Source: Chlamydiia bacterium | GTDB lineage: Bacteria; Chlamydiota; Chlamydiia; Chlamydiales; RGXB01 | Assembly: GCA_040382515.1 (NCBI GenBank) | Contig: JBEIFH010000022.1 | Span: forward strand, 1 to 16,896 | Length of the DNA: 16,896 nt | Direction of reading: 5' to 3' | Part shown: piece by piece, positions 464 through 14,196 of the stretch | Position numbering within the stretch: position 1 is the first letter of the stretch | How the letters are laid out: each line of letters opens with the position of its first letter | The notes under the pieces: model-generated | What the model was told of the DNA's origin: nothing | Database searches by the model: none | What the model saw: the letters and a program-made list of their open reading frames with translations, nothing else | Made by a program: the position numbers and the translations under genes

Positions 464-1526
464 ATTCCAACTGCAGCAACGGGTATAATTTCTTATCTTC
501 CATCACCGGATGGATGAGTGCTTCATAAAGTCGCTCATTGTACGTTTTCGCAGCCTGGCCGGAGCCATAAATACTGCCAAAGTACCATCCCGCCTCAAAA
601 CCTGTCGTCAAAATTCCGGCAGGAATATTTCCATTTAGGAAAAAGTACGTTGCAGTTCCTATGAATAGGGCATTGATCGAAAAAGCGGTAACAGCAGATT
701 GGTATTGACCTAGATAAGCATAGCCTGCTCCAGGGATAACCGCAAGTGTTTGGGCAACCAAGGGGGATTTCTTATGTTTGATGTAGGAGGTATGGGTCTC
801 GTCCAAAACAGATCGTAATTTTCCGGTCTTAGAGAAATCCAACTGGTCATAACTCAAAAAATGGTGCGCTTTTTGCGTGTCGAAAAGGGCTTTTTGGATC
901 GAAATATTCCCCTCTTTGGCAGGGGGCGCGTCCCGATCCAATATAGCAAATGCTGTTTTGGTGTCGGCCGTTTGTAAAGCATGGCCGACGAGGATCGGTT
1001 CGGCTATTTTTGGGTAATTTTGAGCTAATGCCTGGTGTACGCTTAAAGCTTTGTGCTTTTGTTTTGTGATTTCGTAGGCTTCACCCAAAATGAGAAGAAG
1101 GTCTTGGTAAGCTCTGAAATCGGGGTGCACGAAGGCGAGGGAGGAGGATTCGAAGGTAGAGACCAGGTCTTCATGTTTTTTCCCAAGGGCATAACACAAA
1201 AGTGTGTAGTACTCTACCTCATGTTTTCGTTGCATGGTCAGAATCGGATTGGGTTCCTCGCTTAAAAGAAATTCAGCGCGCTGAAAAGAGGTGATCGCAC
1301 GGTAAAGATCGAGTCGTTTGGCAAAGTGGACTCCCATTCGATATTCTGTTGCCCAAGAGGTTTCCAGCTCTTTAGGAGACAAAGGATCGAATGCAGAGGG
1401 TAAAGCCTGCACCATTTTTTCATGAACACTGTAATGAACGTTAGGGTTGATCTCATCCGATACCGATGTGCAGGAGAGCACGAGAGATAAAAAGAGGATT
1501 GGTACAGATCTAGTCCCTTTTGACAA
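453..1526 (-). CDS. Putative lipoprotein with TPR-like helical region and C-terminal TM2-like membrane segment
   Basis: The ORF track gives 453..1592. An in-frame TTG at 1526, preceded by GGGGTGG, yields MSKGTRSVPILFLSLVLS-C, a typical lipoprotein signal, and cuts the overlap with cdsC to 17 bp. TPR-like helices include YRMGVHFAKRLDLYRAITSFQRA and LLLILGEAYEITKQKHKAL. The C-terminal KSPLVAQTLAVIPGAGYAYLGQ plus hydrophobic helices is TM2-like. Confidence 0.65.
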   Translation of the reverse strand: MSKGTRSVPILFLSLVLSCTSVSDEINPNVHYSVHEKMVQALPSAFDPLSPKELETSWATEYRMGVHFAKRLDLYRAITSFQRAEFLLSEEPNPILTMQRKHEVEYYTLLCYALGKKHEDLVSTFESSSLAFVHPDFRAYQDLLLILGEAYEITKQKHKALSVHQALAQNYPKIAEPILVGHALQTADTKTAFAILDRDAPPAKEGNISIQKALFDTQKAHHFLSYDQLDFSKTGKLRSVLDETHTSYIKHKKSPLVAQTLAVIPGAGYAYLGQYQSAVTAFSINALFIGTATYFFLNGNIPAGILTTGFEAGWYFGSIYGSGQAAKTYNERLYEALIHPVMEDKKLYPLLQLEYGF

Positions 1527-4500
1527 GATCCACCCCGAAGTCAAAGGCTTCTGGATCGGATTGATCTCTATAGATGTCTTCTTGCTGCTCACTGATCTCC
1601 TTCCACTGCTCAGTTGATTGAATAATCTCGGGACGGATGAAAATGACTACGTCGGCATTTTCGTTTTCTTTAAGCGATTGGCTAAAAGCAGCACCAATCA
1701 TGGGGAGGCCTCCCAGGCAGGGAAGACCCGATTTTGCCACTGTTTTGGTATTACGGATTTGGCCGGACAGTACAACAAATGCTTTATCGGGAACATGGAC
1801 ACGTGTCTGCATGCTGGTTTTATTTGTCCTGATCCCGTTCACGGATTGAGTGTTCACATCGTTATTGTCATTCGTACCGGTATTAGCTTCCTCGGTAATC
1901 TCTTCATCTATCTCTAAAGTAATAATACCATTATCGCCAATATTTGGGGTAATGTTTAGAGACACTCCGATGTTACGGTATTCAAGGTTGGCATTCGTTG
2001 TTTGTGAGATACCCGATGTGGTGATGATGGATCCGGTAAACGGGACGTTTTGACCGACGAAAATTTGGGACATGCGGCTGTCTTGAGCGAGAATTTTTTG
2101 GTTGAGGATTGTTGTTGTGCGCCCCTCTTCTTGCAAAGCTGTAAGAAGGGAGGTGAGGGTAAGGTAGGATTTTCCACCATGAAAAATGATATCGCCTATG
2201 ATCCCCAGCTGGCGGGATGCGAGGCTGGGGAATAGATTGGGCGAGGGGCCGTTTACTGCATTAACGCCTGATGAAGAACTCCCTGCAGAGGAGGAAGCCC
2301 CTTTAACAGTATCTTGGAAGTTAGGTAAGTTTGCAGCGTCTACCCGTGGATTGTTTGTTCCAATACCTGCAAATTTACCTTTGAAATTACTGTAGCCACC
2401 CCAGCGTAGACCTATATCAAGAACGTCCCTTAAGGTTGTCTCGAGCACAAGCACCTCTATGAAAACCTGCTTAAGAGGGATATCGATCGATGATAAAATA
2501 TCTTTCAATTTCGTAAGAGTTTGCGGATCTCCTGTTGCTATGAGGGAGTTTGTCACCCGGATCCACTGCACCGAACTAATTGCTGTGATCAAAGATTCGT
2601 TTTTAGCGTTCTTTGAGAGCTGCAGCTCCTCACCGATTTGCTTGAGAGCCGACTGGATATCGGATCCCGTATGAAAATTCAATTTGTAGTTTAAAAAACC
2701 GATATTATCAAAGGACTCTATAGAGGTAAGGGGTTTAGCTGTTTCTGCAGTTGGGGTATCGAATTCCTGTAGTAGTTTCATGATCTGGTTGATATTTTCC
2801 TGAGCCCCGACAACTACGATCCTTCCATTCAAGAACTGAAGATTATCTATAGACTTTGAAAGCCCGTGGTCGTTCACCCCTTTATTCGAGATGTGATCCA
2901 TGTAGGCTTGCACCTCTTTGATCAGCTCCGGGCCGGACTTGTACACAGGTTTGTAATTTTGATAATTATCGATGACTTTTTTTCCGGTCATTCCAGGAAT
3001 TCTTTGGTCGAAAGACTCAAGGAGTTTCTCCACCTTTTCCAGGTTTTCCGGTGTGCCGGAAAAGACCAGTATTCCGTCGGTGATTTTCGCGCTGTAGACT
3101 GTTTTGACCAGATCCGGGTCTTCGTCTCTTATCTCTTTTGTGGTCGATTTGAGCTGTTCTAAAAGATCCTTAGCCGATTTGGTTTTTGGACTATAGCTAA
3201 GAAATGTGGACGTTCCTACTTGCGAAATCTTCGAAGTGGTTTGCGTTTGCAAATCGATGGCATTGATCATCTCCCGAACTTTTGCGATATTGACCTCATT
3301 ACCGCTGACAATAATCGAATTCGAATTTTTTACGAGCTTGATCCCCTTGAGTGTCTGTATTAGGCTTGGATCTGCGTTTCCGGAATTTTCCAAATCATTA
3401 GCTATCCCCTGGAGTGATCGGATCATTTCGGCTGCACTCATATGGGTTGGCCTGTAGATAATATACTGCGTCGAGGAGACGGTATGGATGTCGAGTTTGG
3501 TGATGATCTCGGTCAGTTGTTGGATCGTCTGCGGGGTTCCGCGAATGGTAAGCGTATTGTTTGCTTTGTTCCATTGGATATCTTTTACTGCACGGATAAA
3601 GCCCATGTTTTCGGGTGAGTCGGGTAGCTGCGATGCCATTTGATCCAGTTGCTCTACGACAAATTTTCCAGGGACATTGTGTAGTTTGACGATCGAAAAG
3701 CCGGTTGAAACTACCGGTTCCGGGAGTTTTGTTTGCGAATCGATGGCATTGATCATATCGCGAACTTTTCCGATATTGATCTCGCTTCCGCTCACTATGA
3801 TAGAATTCGAGTTCTTTACGAGCTTTATCCCTTTAAGCGTTTGTATGAGGCTCGGATCAGCGGTTCCCGATTTTTCGAGGTCGCTCGTGATCCCGTCAAG
3901 AGATTTGATCATTTCGGCTGCGCTCATATGGACCGGTTTGTAGATGATGTATTGGGTCGTGGAAACAGTATGGATGTCGAGTTTGGTGATAATCTCTGTA
4001 AGCTGTTGTATGATCTGCGGGGTTCCGCGGATGGTGAGCGTATTATTTGTCTTGTTCCACTGCAGGTCCCTGACTGCATGGATGAATCCGATGTTTTCGG
4101 GGGTATCGGGGAGCTGCGATGCCATTTGATCTAACTGTTCTTCGACGAATTTACCGGATACGTTCTGCAGTTTGATGATGGAGAAGCCGGATGATGCTGT
4201 CGTCTGTTGGTCGATTTTCGAAATAAGGTCGCTGATTTCCTGAATAGTGTGTGGTGATCCCTGAATAACGATAGAATTTGTATCTTTATTCCACTTGAGT
4301 GTATCCATCGCATTCAAAAAATCACCATTTGCAGTGTCATCCGGGATGTCTTTGGCCATCGATCGCAAATGGTCCATCACCATTTTTCCTGAAGCAAACT
4401 TTAGTTTTACGATGGAAAATGTGAGATCCGATTTCACCTGTTGCGGTGTGTCTATAGTTTTGATGAGGGTCTGTACCTTGCTGATTTCAACAGGTTCACC

Positions 4501-5493
4501 AATAAAAAGGATGAAATCGGGGGCGATCAAAGTTGCATCGTTGACCAGCCTAGTGAATCCGGCTGAGCTATACTCGGTTGTTTTCGAATCTTTAGAGATG
4601 GCTCTCAGAGCGGTCGAGATGGATTGGATGGAACGGTTGGCACCTTTATAAAGATAAATGTTACCGTTAGTGATAGAGCCTTGTTGCTTTGAGGCTTTCT
4701 CTTCGATCTGTTGAAAGACATCTAGCGCCTTTTCGGTAAGCTCTTTGCTGCCGACAATAAAAACCCTTTGCGTCTCCTCTTGGGGAAGCAAGGAGTAGCT
4801 TTTCTGGCCGCAAACGGTGTCTAAAATAGGTGCTGCGATCGAAACTAGCTCTGTTGGCTGGAAAAATACCGTCTCGTAAGGGACGCTGACCGCACCTGTT
4901 TCCGGTTGATCGACTGCCTTAACCAAAGAATCGATCGAGAGGATATTTTGTATAACATCGGATATGATGATAAGCTTCCGCTCGGGGAATGCTTCGATCA
5001 CGCTTGTTGAGGATAAATAGGGCTGGAGCAGAGTTAAAATTGTCGCAACGGGGCTATTTCTAATTTGATAGATTTTTGTGACTATCGGAGCGACGGTTTC
5101 CCCTTTATTCAGATCAGAGCCAAATAATAGGGGCATCTCTTTAATGTCCGGATTTTGGTGAATGACGAGCGTACCGTTTTCCTCAAGAATACTGAATCCC
5201 TGTATCCTCAAGGTTTGCACGAAACCCGAGACAATCGTTTCTACTGTCATCTCTTCATCGGAAACCAAATTGATCGAAAAATTCAATTCAGCCGGGTTGT
5301 ATACGAAATTGAGCCCGGCTATTTCGCTGAGAAATCCAATAAATTCCTCGGCTTTCACTTGGCTGAAATTGATTTTATAACGCGATTCGCGAGACATTTT
5401 TTGTTTGGGACGGCCCCAAGCATTCAGACCAAATGGTATGATTGAAGCAGTTAAGCAGTAGAAAAGTACATATCTTTTAAAGGCTGGCACCAT
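1510..5493 (-). CDS. sctC: Type III secretion outer-membrane secretin CdsC/SctC, greatly enlarged (1327 aa)
   Basis: N-terminal signal peptide, then an N0 domain (YKINFSQVK...LNFVY) and repeated secretin N-domains. The C-terminal secretin domain has KQVFIEVLVLET, IFVGQNVPF, EYRNIGVSLNITPNI, GLPCLGGLPMIGAAFS and VVIFIRPEII. It sits at the end of the chlamydial cdsD...pkn5-cdsC cluster. Confidence 0.95.
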   Translation of the reverse strand: MVPAFKRYVLFYCLTASIIPFGLNAWGRPKQKMSRESRYKINFSQVKAEEFIGFLSEIAGLNFVYNPAELNFSINLVSDEEMTVETIVSGFVQTLRIQGFSILEENGTLVIHQNPDIKEMPLLFGSDLNKGETVAPIVTKIYQIRNSPVATILTLLQPYLSSTSVIEAFPERKLIIISDVIQNILSIDSLVKAVDQPETGAVSVPYETVFFQPTELVSIAAPILDTVCGQKSYSLLPQEETQRVFIVGSKELTEKALDVFQQIEEKASKQQGSITNGNIYLYKGANRSIQSISTALRAISKDSKTTEYSSAGFTRLVNDATLIAPDFILFIGEPVEISKVQTLIKTIDTPQQVKSDLTFSIVKLKFASGKMVMDHLRSMAKDIPDDTANGDFLNAMDTLKWNKDTNSIVIQGSPHTIQEISDLISKIDQQTTASSGFSIIKLQNVSGKFVEEQLDQMASQLPDTPENIGFIHAVRDLQWNKTNNTLTIRGTPQIIQQLTEIITKLDIHTVSTTQYIIYKPVHMSAAEMIKSLDGITSDLEKSGTADPSLIQTLKGIKLVKNSNSIIVSGSEINIGKVRDMINAIDSQTKLPEPVVSTGFSIVKLHNVPGKFVVEQLDQMASQLPDSPENMGFIRAVKDIQWNKANNTLTIRGTPQTIQQLTEIITKLDIHTVSSTQYIIYRPTHMSAAEMIRSLQGIANDLENSGNADPSLIQTLKGIKLVKNSNSIIVSGNEVNIAKVREMINAIDLQTQTTSKISQVGTSTFLSYSPKTKSAKDLLEQLKSTTKEIRDEDPDLVKTVYSAKITDGILVFSGTPENLEKVEKLLESFDQRIPGMTGKKVIDNYQNYKPVYKSGPELIKEVQAYMDHISNKGVNDHGLSKSIDNLQFLNGRIVVVGAQENINQIMKLLQEFDTPTAETAKPLTSIESFDNIGFLNYKLNFHTGSDIQSALKQIGEELQLSKNAKNESLITAISSVQWIRVTNSLIATGDPQTLTKLKDILSSIDIPLKQVFIEVLVLETTLRDVLDIGLRWGGYSNFKGKFAGIGTNNPRVDAANLPNFQDTVKGASSSAGSSSSGVNAVNGPSPNLFPSLASRQLGIIGDIIFHGGKSYLTLTSLLTALQEEGRTTTILNQKILAQDSRMSQIFVGQNVPFTGSIITTSGISQTTNANLEYRNIGVSLNITPNIGDNGIITLEIDEEITEEANTGTNDNNDVNTQSVNGIRTNKTSMQTRVHVPDKAFVVLSGQIRNTKTVAKSGLPCLGGLPMIGAAFSQSLKENENADVVIFIRPEIIQSTEQWKEISEQQEDIYRDQSDPEAFDFGVDLVKRD
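3245..4188 (-). repeat. Intragenic tandem duplication in cdsC, period 486 bp (162 aa, two N-domains per unit)
   Basis: Copies lie at about 3731-4188 and 3245-3702; for example gatgccatttgatc occurs at 3632 and 4118. A manual alignment of GFS...QT shows 25 differences in 153 aa (about 84% identity). Confidence 0.95.
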
Positions 5494-5604: not shown

Positions 5605-6312
5605 TTAAAAAGGGACCGTTTCATCACCGGTTGGATCGCAATCTAGTCGAAAGCCTAAGTTGTAGAGCTCTTTTTCTAATTGGTCAGCATCGTGAAACCA
5701 GATAGCATTCCAGGATTGTTTTTTTGCAACGAGAATATTTTCTAATTTATCATCGATGAAAAGACAGCTACATGGCTCGACGCCGATTGTTTCTATGACA
5801 AACTGGTAGGCCTCTTTTTGCGGTTTGCGCAGGCCGATCTCATACGACAAAATTAATTGCTCGAAGGGCTCATAATATCCGAGTTCTTTGTATAAATCGG
5901 CTTTGTGTTTTTCCGTGTTAGAAAAAAGGATCACATTTTTTTGTTTTTTGAGAGCTTGGATAATTTTAAAGACTTTCTTATCCATTAAAATGGAGCCTTT
6001 GATCTCTTTTTTAAATTGTTTAAGAAAAGAAGAGGGCATCTCTTTACCGAAATTTTTGAAAATATTTTTAAAAAAATTTTTATCCTCATCCCCATGCAGA
6101 AGGGCCTCTTTCCTTTCCTTTAGAATTTCTTTTGCAGTTTCTTCGCTAATCTCCAACTCTTGAGACAAAAATGCCTCCACAAGCCGCGTATCCTTTTGGA
6201 CGACCACATTTCCGAAGTCAAAAATAACCGTTTGGACTTTATTTGCAGGGGTATCAACATTTACATTTGCCTTGCAAAATAGAGCCAAAAGGAGAGTAAA
6301 GAGGGAAATCAT
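5605..6312 (-). CDS. HAD-superfamily phosphatase (IA variant 3, YihX-like) with N-terminal signal peptide
   Basis: Motif I VIFDFGNVV, motif II LFSN, motif III GLRKPQ and motif IV FIDD are present. The N-terminus MISLFTLLLALFC is hydrophobic. Confidence 0.9.
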   Translation of the reverse strand: MISLFTLLLALFCKANVNVDTPANKVQTVIFDFGNVVVQKDTRLVEAFLSQELEISEETAKEILKERKEALLHGDEDKNFFKNIFKNFGKEMPSSFLKQFKKEIKGSILMDKKVFKIIQALKKQKNVILFSNTEKHKADLYKELGYYEPFEQLILSYEIGLRKPQKEAYQFVIETIGVEPCSCLFIDDKLENILVAKKQSWNAIWFHDADQLEKELYNLGFRLDCDPTGDETVPF

Positions 6313-7879: not shown

Positions 7880-9079
7880 CTATTCTAAAACTTTGAAAAA
7901 AAGTTGCTGATCAAATTCGACAATCTCTCCACGGCGAAGGATCTGCCCGTTCAGCGTCAAATAAACTGTCTTTGGGTCCAGATCGACTTTAAGGGTACTC
8001 TCCGAGTTCAAATGGGCCAAGGTTTTGTAGGGGATCGCTATCGAACCCAGTTCGATTTTGCAGTTGAGAGCAATCTCATCTAGAACAACGTTCTTTTTGT
8101 GAGCTTTCGTATGAGGAGTCGTGTGGTGCGCACGCGCCCTTTGTTCATCTAGCTCCTCCCCATCCTCCAAAAGATTCCCCTCATCTTCTTGATGTTCGAA
8201 ACTCTTTTCATCATCAAAGGTCTCTTCTTCATCTTCATGATCTCTAGAGGACATAAATTTCTCCTGAGGTGTTACGGAAAAAGGTGTGAACCGGTGCAAA
8301 TGAGCATCTTTATATTCGGCGCTCAGTAAAGGGGTATCTTGATAACAGATATGCACCAAGTAGTTTTTATCAAGGACCTCTCTTGAGATTCCTTCCAAAT
8401 GGACAAGATCGAGTGCTTCTAAACTCTTGATCTCTTTTTGTGTCAAGCGGACTTCTCCAAGCTCGATATGGACAGGGACATCGATATCGGGATGATCCTC
8501 TTGATGCGAGACGGGATGGTGATGGTAGAACTCATTGATCTTTTCTAGTGTTTTTACCGGAACGATAAGTTTTGGTGTCAACGAAAGTCCGGGTATTTGC
8601 AAAAGGAAATCAAAGACTTCAAATAACCCTTCAGAGGGTTGCGCGGTCGCCAATGTCATTGAGAGACCCTTGAAAAGATGCATCTCTTCTATCGTTGCCA
8701 AGCCTTTGAGAGCTAAAAATTTCACGACCCCTTTAAAAATCTCAGTAGAGCTGGGGAGGTTTCCTTTAGTGAAATACAGATGCCCTTTTTCGATATCTTG
8801 ACCCCTAAACAAAAGGAAGACAGGGGCCTTTACAGGCTCTAAATGGACTGCCTGTACGAAAGGTTCGGGCCCAAGCTCATGGTATATGGTATCCAGATCT
8901 GAGGTGGAAATAGATTGCATCTCTACTGAAGTTTCAGCAGCGTGCAGGTGCTTTTTAAGAATGGGCTCAAGGTCGGCAAGGTGTAGTTTTGGGACACCTC
9001 CAAAGGGAGAAGCACGGAGCTTTTCAGGCAACAGGAAACGGAGTTTTTTGATCCAGCTAGAATGCTTGTTCATATTCAT
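7880..9079 (-). CDS. sctQ: Type III secretion sorting-platform/C-ring protein CdsQ/SctQ (FliM/FliN-like)
   Basis: Two SPOA/FliN-like domains (DIDVPVHIELGEVRLTQKEIKSL and LDEIALNCKIELG...VYLTLNGQILRRGEIVEF) are separated by an acidic linker. The gene lies just upstream of pkn5. Confidence 0.9.
   Translation of the reverse strand: MNMNKHSSWIKKLRFLLPEKLRASPFGGVPKLHLADLEPILKKHLHAAETSVEMQSISTSDLDTIYHELGPEPFVQAVHLEPVKAPVFLLFRGQDIEKGHLYFTKGNLPSSTEIFKGVVKFLALKGLATIEEMHLFKGLSMTLATAQPSEGLFEVFDFLLQIPGLSLTPKLIVPVKTLEKINEFYHHHPVSHQEDHPDIDVPVHIELGEVRLTQKEIKSLEALDLVHLEGISREVLDKNYLVHICYQDTPLLSAEYKDAHLHRFTPFSVTPQEKFMSSRDHEDEEETFDDEKSFEHQEDEGNLLEDGEELDEQRARAHHTTPHTKAHKKNVVLDEIALNCKIELGSIAIPYKTLAHLNSESTLKVDLDPKTVYLTLNGQILRRGEIVEFDQQLFFKVLE
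8252..8265 (-). promoter_or_regulatory. Internal ribosome binding site and in-frame ATG in cdsQ (predicted short SctQ-C product, 124 aa)
   Basis: The minus strand reads AGGAG-AAATTT-ATG. The ATG at 8254-8252 is in frame (Met276) and upstream of the second SPOA domain. Confidence 0.65.
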
Positions 9080-9614
9080 TCACACGATACACAGTTCTTT
9101 GTTCTTTGCAAAGATTTTTTATTGTAGATGCATGTCGGGGGTTATTTTGAATAGAAGGGGGGATAATAAGGCGCAATTCATAGGGAAAAACAGAAGAGGC
9201 AATCTGATTGTAGAGATCTTGTAGACTTGGAATCAAGTGCTCGAGAGCTTTATCGGACCCCTGTATTTCCAATTGAATCTCCATTTGTGCAGTGTCGTAA
9301 TAACGCACTTCAAACTCGATAGTTTCCCCAAGAGTTTCGAGCGGGCTTGCTAGCTGAAACCTTGTTGCTTCAAATCCCTCTTTTTTTCGGCATTCAAAAG
9401 CTTGAAGAACCTGATGTTTTACTTCAGTGAAAAAAACATCAATCTCCTTTGATGCACCGTTTGGTTCGCTCCCGTTTAAGGAAAGGATCTGAAACGGGGA
9501 GGGGAGCTGTAGACATACAGGAGCAAAAAGATTTTCATAGGGTTCAAACGGTTTCGGATCGTTTGTTAACAATTCGTTTTGTTTGTAAGAACAAAGCTGC
9601 CCTGAAATTTCCAT
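9057..9614 (-). CDS. Short CdsP/SctP-like protein (FliK/T3S4-like C-terminal domain only), paralog of 10746..12179
   Basis: EGFEATRFQLASPLETLGETIEFEVRYYDTAQMEIQLEIQGS...L...L..Q aligns by eye with QGKTTTSIVLHMPNSGLDGAHIDIEHYDTAPHAFNISFFSS...L...L..Q of the long CdsP. The stop overlaps the cdsQ start. Confidence 0.65.
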   Translation of the reverse strand: MEISGQLCSYKQNELLTNDPKPFEPYENLFAPVCLQLPSPFQILSLNGSEPNGASKEIDVFFTEVKHQVLQAFECRKKEGFEATRFQLASPLETLGETIEFEVRYYDTAQMEIQLEIQGSDKALEHLIPSLQDLYNQIASSVFPYELRLIIPPSIQNNPRHASTIKNLCKEQRTVYRVNEYEQAF

Positions 9615-9633
9615 ACACTCTCAAGCATAAGGA

Positions 9634-10290
9634 TTATGGGGATTTGTGAGAATTTAAATTCTCATGTTTTTCCCTAAGATTTTTGAGGCGGGCCAAGATG
9701 TACTCCCCTTCGACAGCATCTATCAAAATAAAGCTTTTAAGCTCCTCCTCGTAGGCAAAGGTATCCCCCGTCCCGACATCAAAGTACCAGCCCCAAAGTT
9801 TTAACAGTCCCTGATCGTATTTTTCTTTTATAAGGGGGAAAGTTTTGAGATGTTCGATCTGCTTGAGGATATTTTCTTTAGCCAAACTTTCAATGGAAGG
9901 ACATTCTTTTGGGTTTTTTCCGTAAGAAAGCCAAAATTGCAGACTTTCAGGGAGAGCTTCTGTCCCCCCCATAATTGCGTGCATAGCGCCGCAGTTGCTG
10001 TGGCCGCAAACAATGATATTTTCGATCGGCAGCTGGCTTACAGCGAATTCGATGCTGGCCCGTTCAGAGCAAAGAACATGGTAGGGGGGGACAATATTTC
10101 CGGCGTTGCGCAGAACGAACAGGTGCCCCGGATGCGTTGATGTGAACAAATTCGGAACCACTCGGCTATCGGAGCAGGTGATGAAAAGCGAGTCGGGTTT
10201 TTGTCCCATAGCAAGATGGCTGAACCGGTTTCTATAATCGCTTAAGTGGAGTTTTCTGAACTCTAGAATTCCTTGAACAAGCTTTAACAT
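9634..10290 (-). CDS. Beta-class carbonic anhydrase
   Basis: Zn-ligand motifs ITCSDSRV and VCGHSNCGAM are present, plus RNAGNIVP, GQKP and LWGWYFDVGTG. An AGGAG RBS lies at 10302-10298. Confidence 0.95.
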   Translation of the reverse strand: MLKLVQGILEFRKLHLSDYRNRFSHLAMGQKPDSLFITCSDSRVVPNLFTSTHPGHLFVLRNAGNIVPPYHVLCSERASIEFAVSQLPIENIIVCGHSNCGAMHAIMGGTEALPESLQFWLSYGKNPKECPSIESLAKENILKQIEHLKTFPLIKEKYDQGLLKLWGWYFDVGTGDTFAYEEELKSFILIDAVEGEYILARLKNLREKHENLNSHKSP

Positions 10291-10310
10291 GGTTGCACTC
10301 CTAAAACCAA

Positions 10311-10362
10311 GAACAGTCCGTTTTCAAAAACGGTAATCGGGCGGCTTGAAGATTTACTGTTC
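10311..10362 (-). promoter_or_regulatory. Candidate structured 5' leader (three-way junction) upstream of the carbonic anhydrase
   Basis: The minus strand reads GAACAGT-A-AATC-(12 nt)-GATT-A-CCGTTT-TTGA-AAACGG-ACTGTTC. These nested complementary segments end 8 nt before the AGGAG RBS. Confidence 0.35.
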
Positions 10363-10745
10363 ACTTTCCTGTGGATCTCTTTTATAGACTTTTGAATTGG
10401 GGCGAGCCTTTTTTCGCGAACCTTATCCTAATCTTTTTGCCCGGCTGCATCTGCCCTGTTGAAGAACAGTGGCCTACTTGTAGGCCGTTATAGCTGAGAA
10501 AATATCTGAACAACACTCTCAAAAAAAGGTTCGATCCTAACTTAAAGGCTTCTGGCTCTATTTCAGAGACGCTTTTCGAAAGAGATCGATTCTTTTATAG
10601 CCGATTTAACATGAAAAAAGGATTAAAAATCCAGAAGAAACAAGGGATCTACTAGGTAAAGAGGGGGGGGATTTTTCCAATTTTATCTCAACCTTAGGGA
10701 TGATTTAATCTTTGGTTCGTCTGGTTTTTTCGCGATAGAGATGTT

Positions 10746-12179
10746 TTAGCTTTTGCTTTTTTTGACCTGGGTGTCACGGCGGCGGCGCTCCTCTTTAGTC
10801 TCACTAAGCAAAAGGGGCTTTTTAACCGAGATCTCAAATTGGGGAAGATTGCTGCGTAGCTGTTGTTCGAGTGTTGTGATATTGGCGTCGAGAATTTTTT
10901 GACCCTCGGGAGATGAGAAAAAACTGATGTTGAATGCGTGGGGAGCGGTGTCATAATGTTCAATATCGATATGTGCCCCGTCAAGACCGGAATTCGGCAT
11001 ATGAAGGACAATCGAGGTGGTGGTTTTTCCCTGAAATTGCATAACGGTCATCATACCGACGAGTTTTTGAAAGAGCTCAAAGACTTGAGGGGGAAATTGT
11101 GCGTAAGGTGGTGTTGTAGTGAGGGGGCTTGTTGAGGAGGTCTCAATCGCGGTAGGAGCCTGTAGGGGCTGAGGACCTTCTTGGGGTTGTTTTGAGGGTA
11201 TAAGAGAGGGTGGGGGCAATACGGGCCCCTCTTTTTCCCTTTTTTCGGACGAAAGATGCCGATCTTTATCGTGGTGGGAGGCTACCGGATGGGGATGCCC
11301 TTCAAGAGGTTGCTTCAAAGTAGAACTGTCGGATTGGGGAGTGGCGAGTTTTTCTTTTTCTTTTTTGGGAACGTGATGCAAAGCTTTTTCGTGATGCATA
11401 GAGACCAGAGGGGGGGGGCTCATGGGAGCCGAATCAGGTGGTGCTTTAGGATGGGATGGATGCAGCTTTTTTAATTTTTGTTCAATAGCATCCAGTTCTT
11501 TAAAGTGGTCGTGCGATCTTTTATTTGCCGAGGGAGTTTCATCATCCTCTGATGTGTCGGGTGGGGTTGATGCAGTCGACAACGGCGGTGGAGTTGAGTG
11601 AGCTGGTGGGGAGGTATAAGAAGGCCCATTTTGGCTTTGATCGGCATCTTTGCTTTTTAAGTTGATGGAGTCTTGATCTGTCGATGAAGATGGTGGAGTA
11701 TCCTCTGATGTGTCGGGTGGGGTTGATGCAGTCGACAACGGCGGTGGAGTTGAGGGAGCTGGTGGGGAGGTATAAGAGGGCCCATTTTGGCTTTGATCGG
11801 CATCTTTGCTTTTTAAGTTGATGGAGTCTTGATCTGTCGATGAAGATGGTGCAGCGATATTTTTAAAAAGATTTTCGTTATCACTACCGTTCTGGCTTAC
11901 CTCTTGAGAAGTTTGTCGTTTCCCTCCAAGGGAGAATTCAGTGGTCTGTTTTTTCGACATCAGTTCAGAGAAAAGATCGGGTTTTGCCTCGATTTGTTTG
12001 TCCTCTTCCCCTTCTTCTTCGTCAGTTTGCCGTGTCGGGTTACGCTTGTTTTGCTGTTGGGAAGCATCGCTATCGTCAACGGCCATCACCTTCTTAAATT
12101 TCTCTGACGTAGGGGCATTTTTTCCCGAATCAAGAGGATCTCGTTGTGGCTGGCCTGAAACGGGATGAGGATTTTGCAT
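10746..12179 (-). CDS. sctP: Needle-length control/ruler protein CdsP/SctP (CT671 positional ortholog), 477 aa
   Basis: The gene follows cdsO. A long disordered Pro/Ser/Thr/Asp/His-rich region precedes a compact C-terminal FliK/T3S4-like domain (FELFQKLVG...IDIEHYDTAPHAFNISF...LEQQLRSNL). A GAGG RBS lies upstream. Confidence 0.75.
   Translation of the reverse strand: MQNPHPVSGQPQRDPLDSGKNAPTSEKFKKVMAVDDSDASQQQNKRNPTRQTDEEEGEEDKQIEAKPDLFSELMSKKQTTEFSLGGKRQTSQEVSQNGSDNENLFKNIAAPSSSTDQDSINLKSKDADQSQNGPSYTSPPAPSTPPPLSTASTPPDTSEDTPPSSSTDQDSINLKSKDADQSQNGPSYTSPPAHSTPPPLSTASTPPDTSEDDETPSANKRSHDHFKELDAIEQKLKKLHPSHPKAPPDSAPMSPPPLVSMHHEKALHHVPKKEKEKLATPQSDSSTLKQPLEGHPHPVASHHDKDRHLSSEKREKEGPVLPPPSLIPSKQPQEGPQPLQAPTAIETSSTSPLTTTPPYAQFPPQVFELFQKLVGMMTVMQFQGKTTTSIVLHMPNSGLDGAHIDIEHYDTAPHAFNISFFSSPEGQKILDANITTLEQQLRSNLPQFEISVKKPLLLSETKEERRRRDTQVKKSKS
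11544..11851 (-). repeat. Near-perfect tandem duplication in cdsP, period 156 bp (52 aa)
   Basis: 11544-11695 and 11700-11851 match over 152 bp with only 2 mismatches (11599/11755 and 11622/11778). The unit encodes PSSSTDQDSINLKSKDADQSQNGPSYTSPPA[P/H]STPPPLSTASTPPDTSED. Confidence 0.97.
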
Positions 12180-12388
12180 GCTACCTCTTGATAGGTTAGA
12201 TTTTTCTTAAAAATGCAAATCCGGCGCTGCACTTTAAGCATATATCCTACGCTTAAGGGATACATTTGAAAAAAATCAAGAGAGTTTTTTATAGAGAGGG
12301 GATGAAACCCTACTCCCAATCTAGATTATAGTCTTTTAAATGGAGTTTGGGAGTGTTTTAAAGGGTCTTACCGAGCATCTTAAAGATT

Positions 12389-12895
12389 CTATTTTCCGCC
12401 GGGCCTGTATTTTCGCGCCGTATGAATGGTAGTTCCGATCTCATCGGTCTCTTTGTTCTCTTCGGCAGCTTCAAGGCGGCGCATCTCGACCTCCCAGTCC
12501 TCTCTGTGCAAACGCAATTTCTCCACATCCTGGCGTCTTTGTTCAAGTAGGACTCTCGCTTTTTCTACCTCATCAACCGCTTTTTTTACCTCTTTTTGTT
12601 GTTCAACAACTTTAGCATGTTCTCTTTTGAGCTTCTCTTCAACAACCACTTTAAGGTACCGCTCTTTGATCATGATCTGATCGCTTGTGGTCCCTTTTTC
12701 CATCTCGTCCATCATTTGACGGATTTTATCGATTTTGTGTTGTTTTATGAGTTCAAGTTCTTTGGTATATTGATCGAGCTTTTTTTGCTCTTTTTCGAGA
12801 AATTGTTTTTTTTCCTGAAGGCTCTTTTCAGCCTCTTCAAGCCGTTTTTTTTTGATTTGTTCGATTTCTTCGAGCGGATATTTCGGCTTTTTCAC
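12389..12895 (-). CDS. sctO: Type III secretion stalk protein CdsO/SctO (FliJ/YscO-like coiled coil)
   Basis: 168-aa Lys/Glu-rich coiled coil ([20 protein letters not shown]...[11 protein letters not shown]...E.DEIG). The GTG start overlaps the cdsN TGA (GTGA at 12895-12892). Confidence 0.88.
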
Positions 12896-14196
12896 CTAAA
12901 TAGGGCCCTTAATTGCTGCAGGGTCTCTTCATACGTCGATTTTTCGGTGACCCCTTGCTTTAAAAAACGCTGCACCCGCTCGATATATTTGATCGCATAA
13001 TCGGCGGCTTTATCAGAGCCTGGTTTGTATTCGCCGATACGGATCAATAATTCATTTTTTCGATAGTTGGCTAAAACTTCGCGGATCTTCCCGATGAGCT
13101 CCATCTGCTCTTTGGAGCAGACGTGGCTTAAAATACGGCTTGCCGACGAGAGGACGTCGATCGCCGGGTAATGGTACTGCCGGGCAAGTTCGCTTGATAA
13201 AATAATATGCCCGTCAAGGATCGAACGAACCTCATCCGACACAGGTTCATTGAGGTCGTCTCCGGCAACTAGTATGGTATAAAATGCTGTGATAGATCCT
13301 TTATCGGAATTGCCCGAGCGTTCCAAAAGGCGGGGGAGAGTTGCAAAAACCGACGGAGTAAAACCGGCTCTTGCAGGGGGTTCGCCCGCGGCGAGTCCCA
13401 CTTCCCGTAAAGCCCGGGCAAAACGGGTCACCGAATCCATCATCAAAATGACTTTTTTTCCCTGGTCTCGAAAATACTCGGCGATGGCGGTACCCACATA
13501 AGCTGCCGTCAAACGCATCTGGGCGGCTTGATCTGAGGTGGAGACGATCACAACCGATCTTGCCATCCCTTCCGGACCAAGATCATTTTCAAGAAATTCC
13601 CGAAGCTCGCGCCCCCTTTCTCCAATCAAAGCAATCACGTTGACATCGGCGCGCGCGTAACGGGCGATCATCCCTAGTAGAGTCGACTTTCCTCCGCCGG
13701 CTGCAGCAAATATCCCGACACGCTGCCCTTCACCGCAGGTGAGAGCGCCGTCTATACAACGGATCCCGGTAGAAATGGGGGTTTCAATCATTTTCCGCTT
13801 CAAAGGATCGGGTGGGGGAGACATGACAGGGTAAGTTTCCTGGAGGTTTAGAGGGCCTTTTTCTTCTTCGTCTAAAGGGTTGCCAAGCCCGTCCAAAACG
13901 CGTCCGAGCAACTCTGGTCCTACCTTGATATGCAACGTAGTTTTCAGCGGAACCACCTCGGAGGAGGGGCCCACTCCCGTCATTTCCGACATCGGGGAGA
14001 GAAACACTTCATCTTTTGTAAATCCGACAACTTCCGCCAATAAGGGGGTTCCCGGGCGTTTGATCATGCAAATTTCGCCCATCTTCACTTCGGGTACGAC
14101 CGCCTTGATCAAAAGGCCGACGATTTCGGTGATACGACCGTTCATGGCCGTCAGCGAGATCTCGTCCAGCTGTTTAAAGACCGATTCAAAATCCAT
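12892..14196 (-). CDS. sctN: Type III secretion ATPase CdsN/SctN (FliI/YscN family)
   Basis: Walker [20 protein letters not shown], Walker [37 protein letters not shown] and [12 protein letters not shown] are present. Confidence 0.97.

Follow-up and report, generated by a model that had tools for sequence, protein, structure and literature searches.

The window analysed here is a 16,896-nt stretch of chlamydial DNA in which two genes of interest, one long and one short, lie between the type III secretion genes cdsO and cdsQ. The features to which the text refers are listed below:

7880..9079, minus strand: cdsQ (SctQ), 399 aa, Pfam FliMN_C (4.9e-8)
9057..9079, minus strand: overlap of the short-gene end with the cdsQ start, 23 nt
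9057..9614, minus strand: short SctP-like gene, an ORF of 185 aa with ATG start, HMM A5 3.2e-38
9135..9455, minus strand: T3S4 (substrate-specificity-switch) domain of the short protein, residues ~54–160, as placed in the AlphaFold model
9288..9299, minus strand: YDTA motif of the short protein, residues 106–109, in the turn joining model strands 2 and 3
9483..9506, minus strand: N-terminal motif 2 (LPSPFQIL), residues 37–44
9537..9560, minus strand: N-terminal motif 1 (DPKPFEPY), residues 19–26, a degenerate form of P-K-x-x-F-K-K/E-V-M
9634..10290, minus strand: beta-carbonic anhydrase gene, separating the long gene from the short one, Pfam Pro_CA (3.6e-39)
10291..10745, no strand: spacer from the long gene to the carbonic anhydrase gene, 455 nt
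10746..12179, minus strand: long SctP-like gene, 477 aa, directly after cdsO, HMM A5 1e-44, positional counterpart of sctP/cdsP
10779..11099, minus strand: T3S4 domain of the long protein, residues ~361–467, placed by hhalign to the short family
11544..11851, minus strand: tandemly duplicated stretch of the long-gene linker, unit of 156 nt (52 aa), TRF 2.0 copies with 98% matches
12389..12895, minus strand: cdsO (SctO), 168 aa, Pfam YscO-like (1.2e-41)

A sequence-only reading of this DNA had described a 185-aa ORF at 9057–9614 that has about 55 aa ahead of a C-terminal domain, shares the motif YDTA with the long protein, and abuts cdsQ in place of the long copy. These points were confirmed. 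The ORF lies on the minus strand, ~53 residues precede the domain in the model, YDTA forms residues 106–109 of the short and residues 409–412 (10944–10955) of the long protein, and the short gene runs into cdsQ. Upstream of its ATG, a stop is reached after just two more in-frame codons. As judged from its substitutions relative to genome G002 (dN 0.08, dS 0.27, dN/dS 0.29), which cluster in residues 1–55, the short gene is under purifying selection. The protein measures 185–190 aa in the eight full-length homologs of the window's clade, and the short-copy matches listed contain no stops or frameshifts. Wherever the sources name the long and the short gene, both are annotated as "hypothetical protein".

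The known T3S4 "ruler" family comprises the SctP proteins YscP, PscP, InvJ, Spa32, and EscP and the flagellar FliK. T3S4 proteins bind the cytoplasmic domain of SctU/FlhB and switch the class of exported substrates. In SctP rulers, which themselves pass out through the injectisome, the length of a linker, frequently with repeats, sets the length of the needle. The long protein of the window has such an extended linker, of ~290 residues and bearing repeats. The long protein P0007 carries one copy of the 52-aa repeat and has 425 aa, but is otherwise identical, and differences in repeat number amounting to 52 aa and 43 aa were found among near-identical relatives.

The two proteins were compared at increasing depth. 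With BLASTP, the short protein matched the long one at a nonsignificant E-value of 4.6, over the same stretch that the sequence-only reading had named. The pairwise alignment with shuffle test that this reading had proposed, run with Smith-Waterman, gave z 3.8 for the two domains (11 of 2000 shuffles scored at least as high as observed) and z 2.2 for the whole proteins (75 of 2000). Comparison of profiles with hhalign yielded an E-value of 1.8e-4 (probability 48.5%) when both profiles were built from the window's genus alone, and of 1.8e-11 (probability 97.3%, 90 columns) when both genes of two other families were included. In one genome of another family (G025), the short protein reads ...IHIRHYDTAPDRF... 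and its long neighbor ...IQIDHYDTAPHSF.... The HMM of the domain (A5) matched only the long (1e-44) and the short (3e-38) protein in the window's genome. When the A5 profile was searched against PDB sequences, 5cuk_A, a "Ruler protein", came first, with a weak E-value of 0.0038 over 88 of 107 positions, and the next entry followed at 0.19.

Searches with the single proteins of the window against Pfam and, by phmmer, against the PDB gave nothing significant for either the long or the short copy. Similarly, none of the 38 scanned proteins reached the cut-off of 29.8 bits for Pfam PF02120 (Flg_hook); two related proteins gave subthreshold matches (21.8 and 17.1 bits), and the short ORF of the window gave none. 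SctP proteins are known to have poor coverage in sequence models (PMC3459982).

The AlphaFold model of the short protein shows the compact alpha/beta fold of T3S4 domains, with a helix at residues 53–79, strands at 83–89, 98–106, and 112–118, a second helix at 121–141, and a strand at 146–150 (pLDDT 79–92 for residues 61–170). Residues 55–154 superposed on the substrate-specificity domain of PscP (5cuk) with Z 10.7 and rmsd 2.8 over 93 of 94 residues, and on the C-terminal domain of FliK (2rrl) with Z 8.4 and rmsd 3.3 over 94 residues, whereas the best chain beyond these two reached Z 5.7. Foldseek also ranked 5cuk first (E 1.6e-3, prob 1.00, TM 0.68 by target length). For the long protein, whose final 128 residues were modeled, 5cuk was again the best match (Z 8.7, rmsd 3.2, 79 residues aligned), with the next at 5.3.

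The notion that the resemblance arose by chance and that the ORF encodes an unrelated small protein could draw on the BLASTP result and on the missing Pfam match of the window's ORF, but profile, HMM, structure, and synteny speak against it in concert, as does the shuffle test (11/2000). It is refuted computationally, and we consider it barely conceivable. The C-terminal domain common to both proteins, as the sequence-only reading had it, therefore stands on the hhalign probability of 97.3%, HMM A5, the 5cuk-like models, and synteny. That reading had been prepared to give up the relationship if neither profiles nor structures were significantly similar; the profiles matched at E 1.8e-11, and both models matched 5cuk best. 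The short gene is genuine and conserved, and it encodes an abridged version of the needle-ruler protein of chlamydiae in which the switch domain has been retained. Long and short copies have in common the hydrophobic pattern and the (H)YDTA(P) turn, and HYDTAP is the form of the motif in most copies of either kind in other families. The two copies likely have the same partner, as far as this shared pattern indicates.

The short protein is also related to the long one outside the domain. Phe23 of motif 1 is invariant among 25 short proteins, and the long copies carry ...PEKFKKVM... equally far from the start. In motif 2, Ser39, Pro40, and Phe41 are invariant across the genus, and other families have comparable S/P-x-F-x-x-L/M stretches in their short as well as their long proteins. 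Motif 1 was spotted by eye and its regular expression written post hoc, and motif 2 was likewise judged by eye. Between motif 2 (residues 37–44) and the domain (from residue 53) there are only ~10 residues of linker, so that the short protein lacks the long extended linker of a ruler, which its long neighbor has. The description "ruler-less" in the sequence-only reading is thus apt for the linker, but not for the N-terminus, where both motifs of the long copy have been kept. The short protein is, by its sequence features, a compact whole SctP-like paralog with a minimal linker rather than a bare domain. The N-terminal motifs that it has in common with the long copy are compatible with putative secretion, but are no proof of it.

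Compared with known systems, the short protein resembles SctP and FliK in its C-terminal T3S4 fold (5cuk Z 10.7, 2rrl Z 8.4), and its gene lies between sctO and sctQ, as is the case for SctP and for CdsP (CT671, between cdsO and cdsQ). It differs from SctP/FliK in having neither a needle-length linker nor a significant PF02120 match, and in that its cluster encodes another T3S4 protein, the long one, as well. In size and layout alone (185 aa, domain at residues 54–160, no ruler-length linker), it can be likened to HpaC/HpaP of Xanthomonas/Ralstonia. To our knowledge, HpaC is the sole T3S4 protein of its system; in contrast, the chlamydial system has two, and the short one shares its N-terminal motifs with the long paralog. 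HpaC of Xanthomonas has ~200 aa, with T3S4 at the C-terminus and no ruler linker (PMC2427183). CdsP (CT671), unlike the long and short pair, is a single gene product of 283 aa. By hhalign, CT671 matched the short family with E 0.013 and the long family with E 0.14, in the same region and with the same secondary-structure pattern, but both values are too weak to assign it as ortholog of either. Outside the CT671 type, none of 36 proteins, the long and short proteins of the window among them, matched Pfam DUF5421 (PF17458), whereas both CT671-type positive controls did (G040, 1.2e-153; G035, 3.4e-12). Of the profile and structure checks that the sequence-only reading had suggested, Foldseek put 5cuk on top, whereas significant matches to PF02120 and to the CT671 family (DUF5421) were absent. 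Its term "CdsP paralog" holds insofar as the short protein is a paralog of the SctP-like long copy; because neither copy matches DUF5421, "CdsP" is here a positional and not a family name. Collingro et al. 2023 count CdsP as restricted to Chlamydiaceae and Sororchlamydiaceae (PMC10448858).

Next to this, the T3S4 domain was detected by HMM in 283 of 400 scored genomes of the order, in about 390 copies altogether. The same study counts the SctP role as missing by orthology in environmental chlamydiae (PMC10448858), yet the domain is detectable in those 283 genomes; an annotation gap is thereby repaired. At least two matches were found in 109 genomes from ~10 families, of which up to three are doubtful: G144 (f32) and G076 (f37), whose second matches are spurious (weak or with stops), and G168 (f32). 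A word-indexed protein search with the short-family alignment reached eight proteins, the wider survey was made by whole-genome HMM searches, and the phylum-wide sample consisted solely of genomes of this order.

The gene order of the pair loci is cdsN-cdsO-long-short-cdsQ-pknD. Twelve loci had no insertion and were read for the long gene, the short gene, and the two flanks; there the order was cdsO-long-short-cdsQ. The short gene adjoined cdsQ in all 18 loci from ~10 families, broken clusters included, either overlapping it or at a distance of ≤144 nt (16 loci with both genes placed), and all six interruptions seen separated long from short. In ~10 families of environmental chlamydiae the pair has been conserved, and the short gene keeps its place immediately upstream of cdsQ. 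A double sctP locus, which the sequence-only reading had set against systems that normally encode one SctP, turned out in this survey to be the usual arrangement in ~10 families of the order. In a search of mostly open-access main texts, no publication describing a T3S4/SctP gene pair in one injectisome or in chlamydiae was found. The short proteins measure 170–230 aa across families. Other families have a single gene, for a protein of 283–422 aa, and the Chlamydiaceae-like genomes (CT671 type, Pfam DUF5421) also have one; therefore, one gene can suffice.

In the domain tree, which is poorly resolved (20 of 34 inner branches unresolved), five of the six longest end branches belong to short copies. 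No copy has diverged further than the short one of the window's genus (end branch 4.23), which has lost the Pro of HYDTAP and in which a conserved acidic tail replaces the basic tail. Its activity may have drifted. In G397 (f8), the long and the short copy are sisters (99/85), and a single clade of all short copies was rejected (p-AU 0.001). Without the G397 pair, the single gene of G010, and the truncated L024_S263, such a clade was not rejected, although this p-AU of 0.157 is no proof of one origin. The tree suggests that the pair may have had more than one origin or been homogenized, and the functions of "short" copies therefore need not match everywhere. The faster evolution of short copies, together with the existence of entire families with just one gene, would suit a duplicate that is redundant or decaying and has no role of its own. 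We regard this as very improbable given the intact reading frames among the short-copy matches listed, the dN/dS of 0.29, and the unbroken association with cdsQ (18/18 loci), even in broken clusters.

With almost no linker, the short protein presumably cannot report needle length. We find it somewhat probable that it is a switch factor that acts on CdsU beside the long ruler, independently of length or at a very short length. Its T3S4 domain would act on the cytoplasmic domain of CdsU (SctU), as do those of FliK, YscP, PscP, and HpaC, and this action would alter which substrates are exported. Reporting of needle length would be left to the long copy, the linker of which varies by repeat number among close relatives, and the short copy would supply a switching or gating step that is length-independent or set by a very short structure. 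Whether such a switch factor leaves through the gate in the manner of the long copy or stays cytoplasmic like HpaC appears, as a rough estimate, evenly balanced. Prediction of a complex between residues 50–185 of the short protein (A6) and the cytoplasmic domain of CdsU (A7) gave a score of 0.00 in both runs, which speaks neither for nor against the interaction. The cytoplasmic domain of CdsU comprises 144 residues and contains NPTH.

A rival and, in our view, unlikely possibility is a two-ruler system, in which the short protein would be an exported tape that gauges an early structure of very small length (inner rod or needle adaptor, for instance) and sets off a first switch; a second switch would come from the long protein, as the ruler of the needle. 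Both N-terminal motifs have been kept equally far from the start, as would be expected if the two copies enter the export gate alike, and both copies have retained the T3S4 domain; moreover, the short length is tightly kept in the genus (185–190 aa), whereas the long one varies by repeats. However, the N-terminal motifs could bind CdsO or a chaperone instead of signaling export (CT670-CT671 binding is reported by Lorenzini et al. 2010, as cited in PMC10448858), and with short proteins of 170–230 aa across families no fixed "measured" length is evident. We also know of no ruler for the rod in any known injectisome or flagellum. In an extended version, which we consider doubtful, many environmental chlamydiae would have two serial T3S4 checkpoints: an exported mini-ruler, made with CdsQ, would sense when the inner rod or adaptor is complete or would simply prime CdsU, and the long repeat-variable ruler would then sense needle length. 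Ruler and switch, which are fused in the classical SctP/FliK proteins, would be partly split between the paralogs, and in the Chlamydiaceae the two would have been collapsed into a single gene.

Alternatively, the short protein could stay in the cytoplasm and compete with the T3S4 domain of the long copy for CdsU, thereby delaying or tuning the switch. The same domain and turn motif in both copies make the same binding site plausible, and the gene is encoded with cdsQ, the product of which is part of the cytoplasmic sorting platform. Yet a mere competitor would not need conserved N-terminal motifs, and at the sequence level competitor and activator look alike; we hold this role to be improbable. 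Short needles and a stage-specific (EB or RB) variant, also raised by the sequence-only reading, are speculative roles.

A switch factor beside a long ruler would bear on type III systems in general, where it is a matter of debate how the measurement of length is coupled to the switch of substrates. In a Shigella study, the two were argued to be no more than loosely coupled (PMC3542141). With a T3S4 domain borne by a long linker of variable repeat number and another by hardly any linker, the chlamydial pair is a natural experiment on this coupling.

The short protein is probably made with CdsQ, in a transcription unit distinct from cdsN-cdsO-long. In a promoter and terminator scan of 8800–12500, counts equaled those of shuffled sequences, so that the scan reveals no operon boundary. 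RNA-library contigs cover the short ORF, and one of 289 nt, identical to the window at 9517–9805, spans the junction of the carbonic anhydrase and short genes. This is a weak hint that the short gene is expressed together with the carbonic anhydrase gene. Such contigs may come from DNA: library X18, flagged as probably DNA, has the same contigs as X19. Stretches of the region are uncovered in X20 and parts of X19, but with contigs, gaps carry no meaning. The beta-carbonic anhydrase insertion occupies the same place in all six other genomes of the genus and was found in none of the other loci searched. The spacer that separates it from the long gene (10291–10745) contains two minus-strand hairpins, at 10486–10471 and 10333–10318.

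The main chlamydial injectisome cluster lies on the minus strand of the window, in a genome of 46 contigs (1.39 Mb, completeness 92.65%). Freshwater and lake-water metagenomes hold DNA near-identical to the window. The cluster starts with a CdsD-like gene, followed by three small genes and a CT668/SctI-like gene, and continues with two SctP-like genes among its members:

12892-14196, minus strand, cdsN
12389-12895, minus strand, cdsO (YscO-like, 1.2e-41)
10746-12179, minus strand, long SctP-like gene (477 aa)
9634-10290, minus strand, beta-carbonic anhydrase gene (3.6e-39)
9057-9614, minus strand, short SctP-like ORF (185 aa)
7880-9079, minus strand, cdsQ (FliMN_C)

Beyond cdsQ follow pknD, a 235-aa ORF (5605-6312) that we take to be HAD-type hydrolase-like, and a 1327-aa ORF (1510-5493), presumably a candidate secretin cdsC. 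The beta-carbonic anhydrase gene thus lies inside the injectisome cluster and separates the two SctP-like genes. The remaining six genomes of the genus all carry it at the same place (78-98% identity), and none of the loci searched in other families has it. The spacer at 10291-10745 (455 nt) is non-coding and contains minus-strand hairpins at 10486-10471 and 10333-10318, and ACTGTTCTT follows each of the two; its promoter and terminator counts were not above those of shuffles.

Re-reading of the ORFs and motifs reproduced all coordinates of the sequence-only reading, which had proposed that the short protein is related to the long one's C-terminal domain. By BLASTP alone, the match between the two proteins is not significant (E 4.6). 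The kinship of their domains is nevertheless real, as profile comparison, shuffle test and structural models agree. In the shuffle test, domain against domain, z was 3.8, and the observed score was reached by 11 of 2000 shuffles. Profile-profile comparison of short and long proteins gave E 1.8e-4 with sequences of the genus only, and a probability of 97.3% (E 1.8e-11, 90 columns) when the counterpart genes of two more families were included. In other families, HYDTAP is present in both genes and the kinship is visible by eye.

Searched against PDB sequences, the domain profile best matched the PscP 'ruler protein' 5cuk (E 0.0038; runner-up 0.19). The AlphaFold model of the short protein, built from a 25-sequence alignment (mean pLDDT 74, 79-92 across residues 61-170), shows a helix, three strands, a helix and a strand in residues 53-150. 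With this model, Foldseek ranked 5cuk first (E 1.6e-3, prob 1.00), and a scan of 48,161 chains that did not use Foldseek gave Z 10.7 for 5cuk and 8.4 for the FliK C-terminal domain (2rrl), followed by 5.7. An AlphaFold model of the long protein's last 128 residues likewise matched 5cuk first (Z 8.7; runner-up 5.3). None of the 38 proteins scanned reached the cut-off of the Pfam FliK model, and two gave weak matches. These model matches and Pfam misses indicate that both proteins carry a predicted substrate-specificity-switch (T3S4) fold that escapes sequence libraries.

The likeness extends to the N-terminus, where short (25 proteins aligned) and long proteins have features in common. The first motif, P-K-x-x-F-K-K/E-V-M, lies around residues 20-33, and its phenylalanine is invariant (F23 in the short set, n=25; F28 in the long set, n=11). 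The second, S/P-x-F-x-x-L/M, was judged by eye and lies downstream of the first. From this second motif to the domain there are ~10 residues in the short protein of the window (motif at 37-44, domain from 53) versus ~290 in the long one. As far as the sequences tell, the short protein is therefore more than a domain, namely a compact whole-protein paralog of the long one. It measures 185-190 aa throughout the window's clade. P, S, T, and Q abound in the linker of the long protein, which contains a 156-nt (52-aa) tandem duplication (11544-11851; 2.0 copies, 98% matches). The long proteins of near-identical relatives have 425 versus 477 aa and differ by exactly this 52-aa block, with one copy in the 425-aa form; another near-identical pair (444 versus 487 aa) differs by a 43-aa block. 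Such length polymorphism would be the behavior expected of a ruler.

In FliK and HpaC, according to passages of PMC2427183, the T3S4 domain binds the C-terminal domain of FlhB/HrcU and flips export specificity. By analogy, the short protein would bind CdsU through its T3S4 domain and flip export specificity. CdsU, with its NPTH site, is encoded in the window's genome, where cdsU is split by the ends of two contigs, C31 (end) and C11 (start); the final 181 codons, NPTH site included, are on C31. With almost no linker, the short protein would be unable to read needle length and could thus serve, next to the long ruler, as a switch factor that is length-independent or of very short range. It might be exported, as a mini-ruler or first checkpoint, stay inside the cell like HpaC, or antagonize the long copy.

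The sequence-only reading took one such protein per system as the norm; its observation of a second T3S4 paralog was borne out and its interpretation is supported in part, but the pair is not restricted to the window. Run over the order, the domain HMM (A5) matched 283 of the 400 genomes scored, 174 of them once and 109 at least twice. The two-match families are f1, f2, f8, f11, f20, f28, f33, f34, f43, and f47, and among genomes with a match, two-match genomes make up 7/7 in f1, 30/47 in f8, 20/22 in f33, and 34/38 in f43. Three further two-match genomes lie in f32 and f37; the second match was spurious in both of those inspected. Loci were read in the window and 17 more genomic locations, from nine of these families (f1, f2, f8, f11, f20, f28, f33, f34, and f43). 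Their gene order is cdsN-cdsO-long-short-cdsQ-pknD, and it is the short gene, as had been noted for the window, not the long one, that adjoins cdsQ (18/18).

All interruptions of the cluster fall between the long and short genes, which suggests that cdsN-cdsO-long and short-cdsQ-pknD are transcribed as separate units. The interruptions comprise the carbonic anhydrase gene in the window's genus, ORFs in G101, inserts of ~2.0 kb in G033 and ~2.6 kb in G330, and, in G025 (L011, contig C8, 6142-9849), an IS with a DDE_Tnp_1 transposase plus a 281-aa Cys-rich ORF. G121 has a split cluster: 745 kb lie between its two genes, and the short one has an IS630-like transposase next to it (L025, contig C4, 1741-2523). 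Mobile elements thus occur at the long/short boundary in G025 and G121.

Resolution of the domain tree is poor. Its short copies have long branches, and that of the window's copy is the longest (4.23). In G397 of f8 (L022, contig C1, 1912-3794; long 405 aa, short 222 aa), the two genes are sisters (support 99/85) and group with the single gene of G010. Since G013 and G202, other genera of f8, have only one gene each, this sisterhood points to recent duplication or gene conversion. A single clade of all short copies was rejected (p-AU 0.001), and was no longer rejected without the G397/G010 group (p-AU 0.157). This fits one old duplication, followed in f8 by re-duplication or gene conversion; several origins of the pair are possible.

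A single gene with the same domain (315-422 aa) occurs in G010, G037, G008, G013, and G202. The single genes of G040 (283 aa, 1.2e-153; genome 1.0 Mb) and G035 (321 aa, 3.4e-12) match DUF5421, the Pfam family of Chlamydia CdsP, which matched none of the 36 other proteins scanned; A5 matched 0/24 genomes of the family of G040. Because the DUF5421 proteins align only weakly to the same region (E 0.013 and 0.14), no ortholog of Chlamydia CdsP can be named. Collingro et al. 2023 (PMC10448858) regard CdsP as restricted to Chlamydiaceae and Sororchlamydiaceae, and Abby and Rocha 2012 (PMC3459982) describe SctP as not traceable by sequence. Existing sources name both genes 'hypothetical'. The T3S4 fold and its general role are already known; the literature searched yielded no description of an injectisome with two T3S4 genes, and the pairing, how widely it occurs and the compact paralog of the whole protein seem not to have been described before.

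The short ORF is a real gene: compared with G002 of the same genus, it has dN 0.080 and dS 0.273 (ratio 0.29), with changes mostly within the first 55 residues. Contigs of RNA libraries cover the short ORF, and one (289 nt, identical to the window) spans 9517-9805, running from the last part of the carbonic anhydrase gene into the first part of the short ORF. These contigs give a weak hint of expression, as DNA carry-over is possible and library X18, flagged as probably DNA, shares its contigs with X19. Short proteins usually end in a basic tail; those of the window's clade have a conserved ...IK(N/E)LCKEQRTVYGVNEDEQAP in its place (9057-9140 in the window). Its last 7 codons overlap the start of cdsQ, so double coding may account for some of the conservation.
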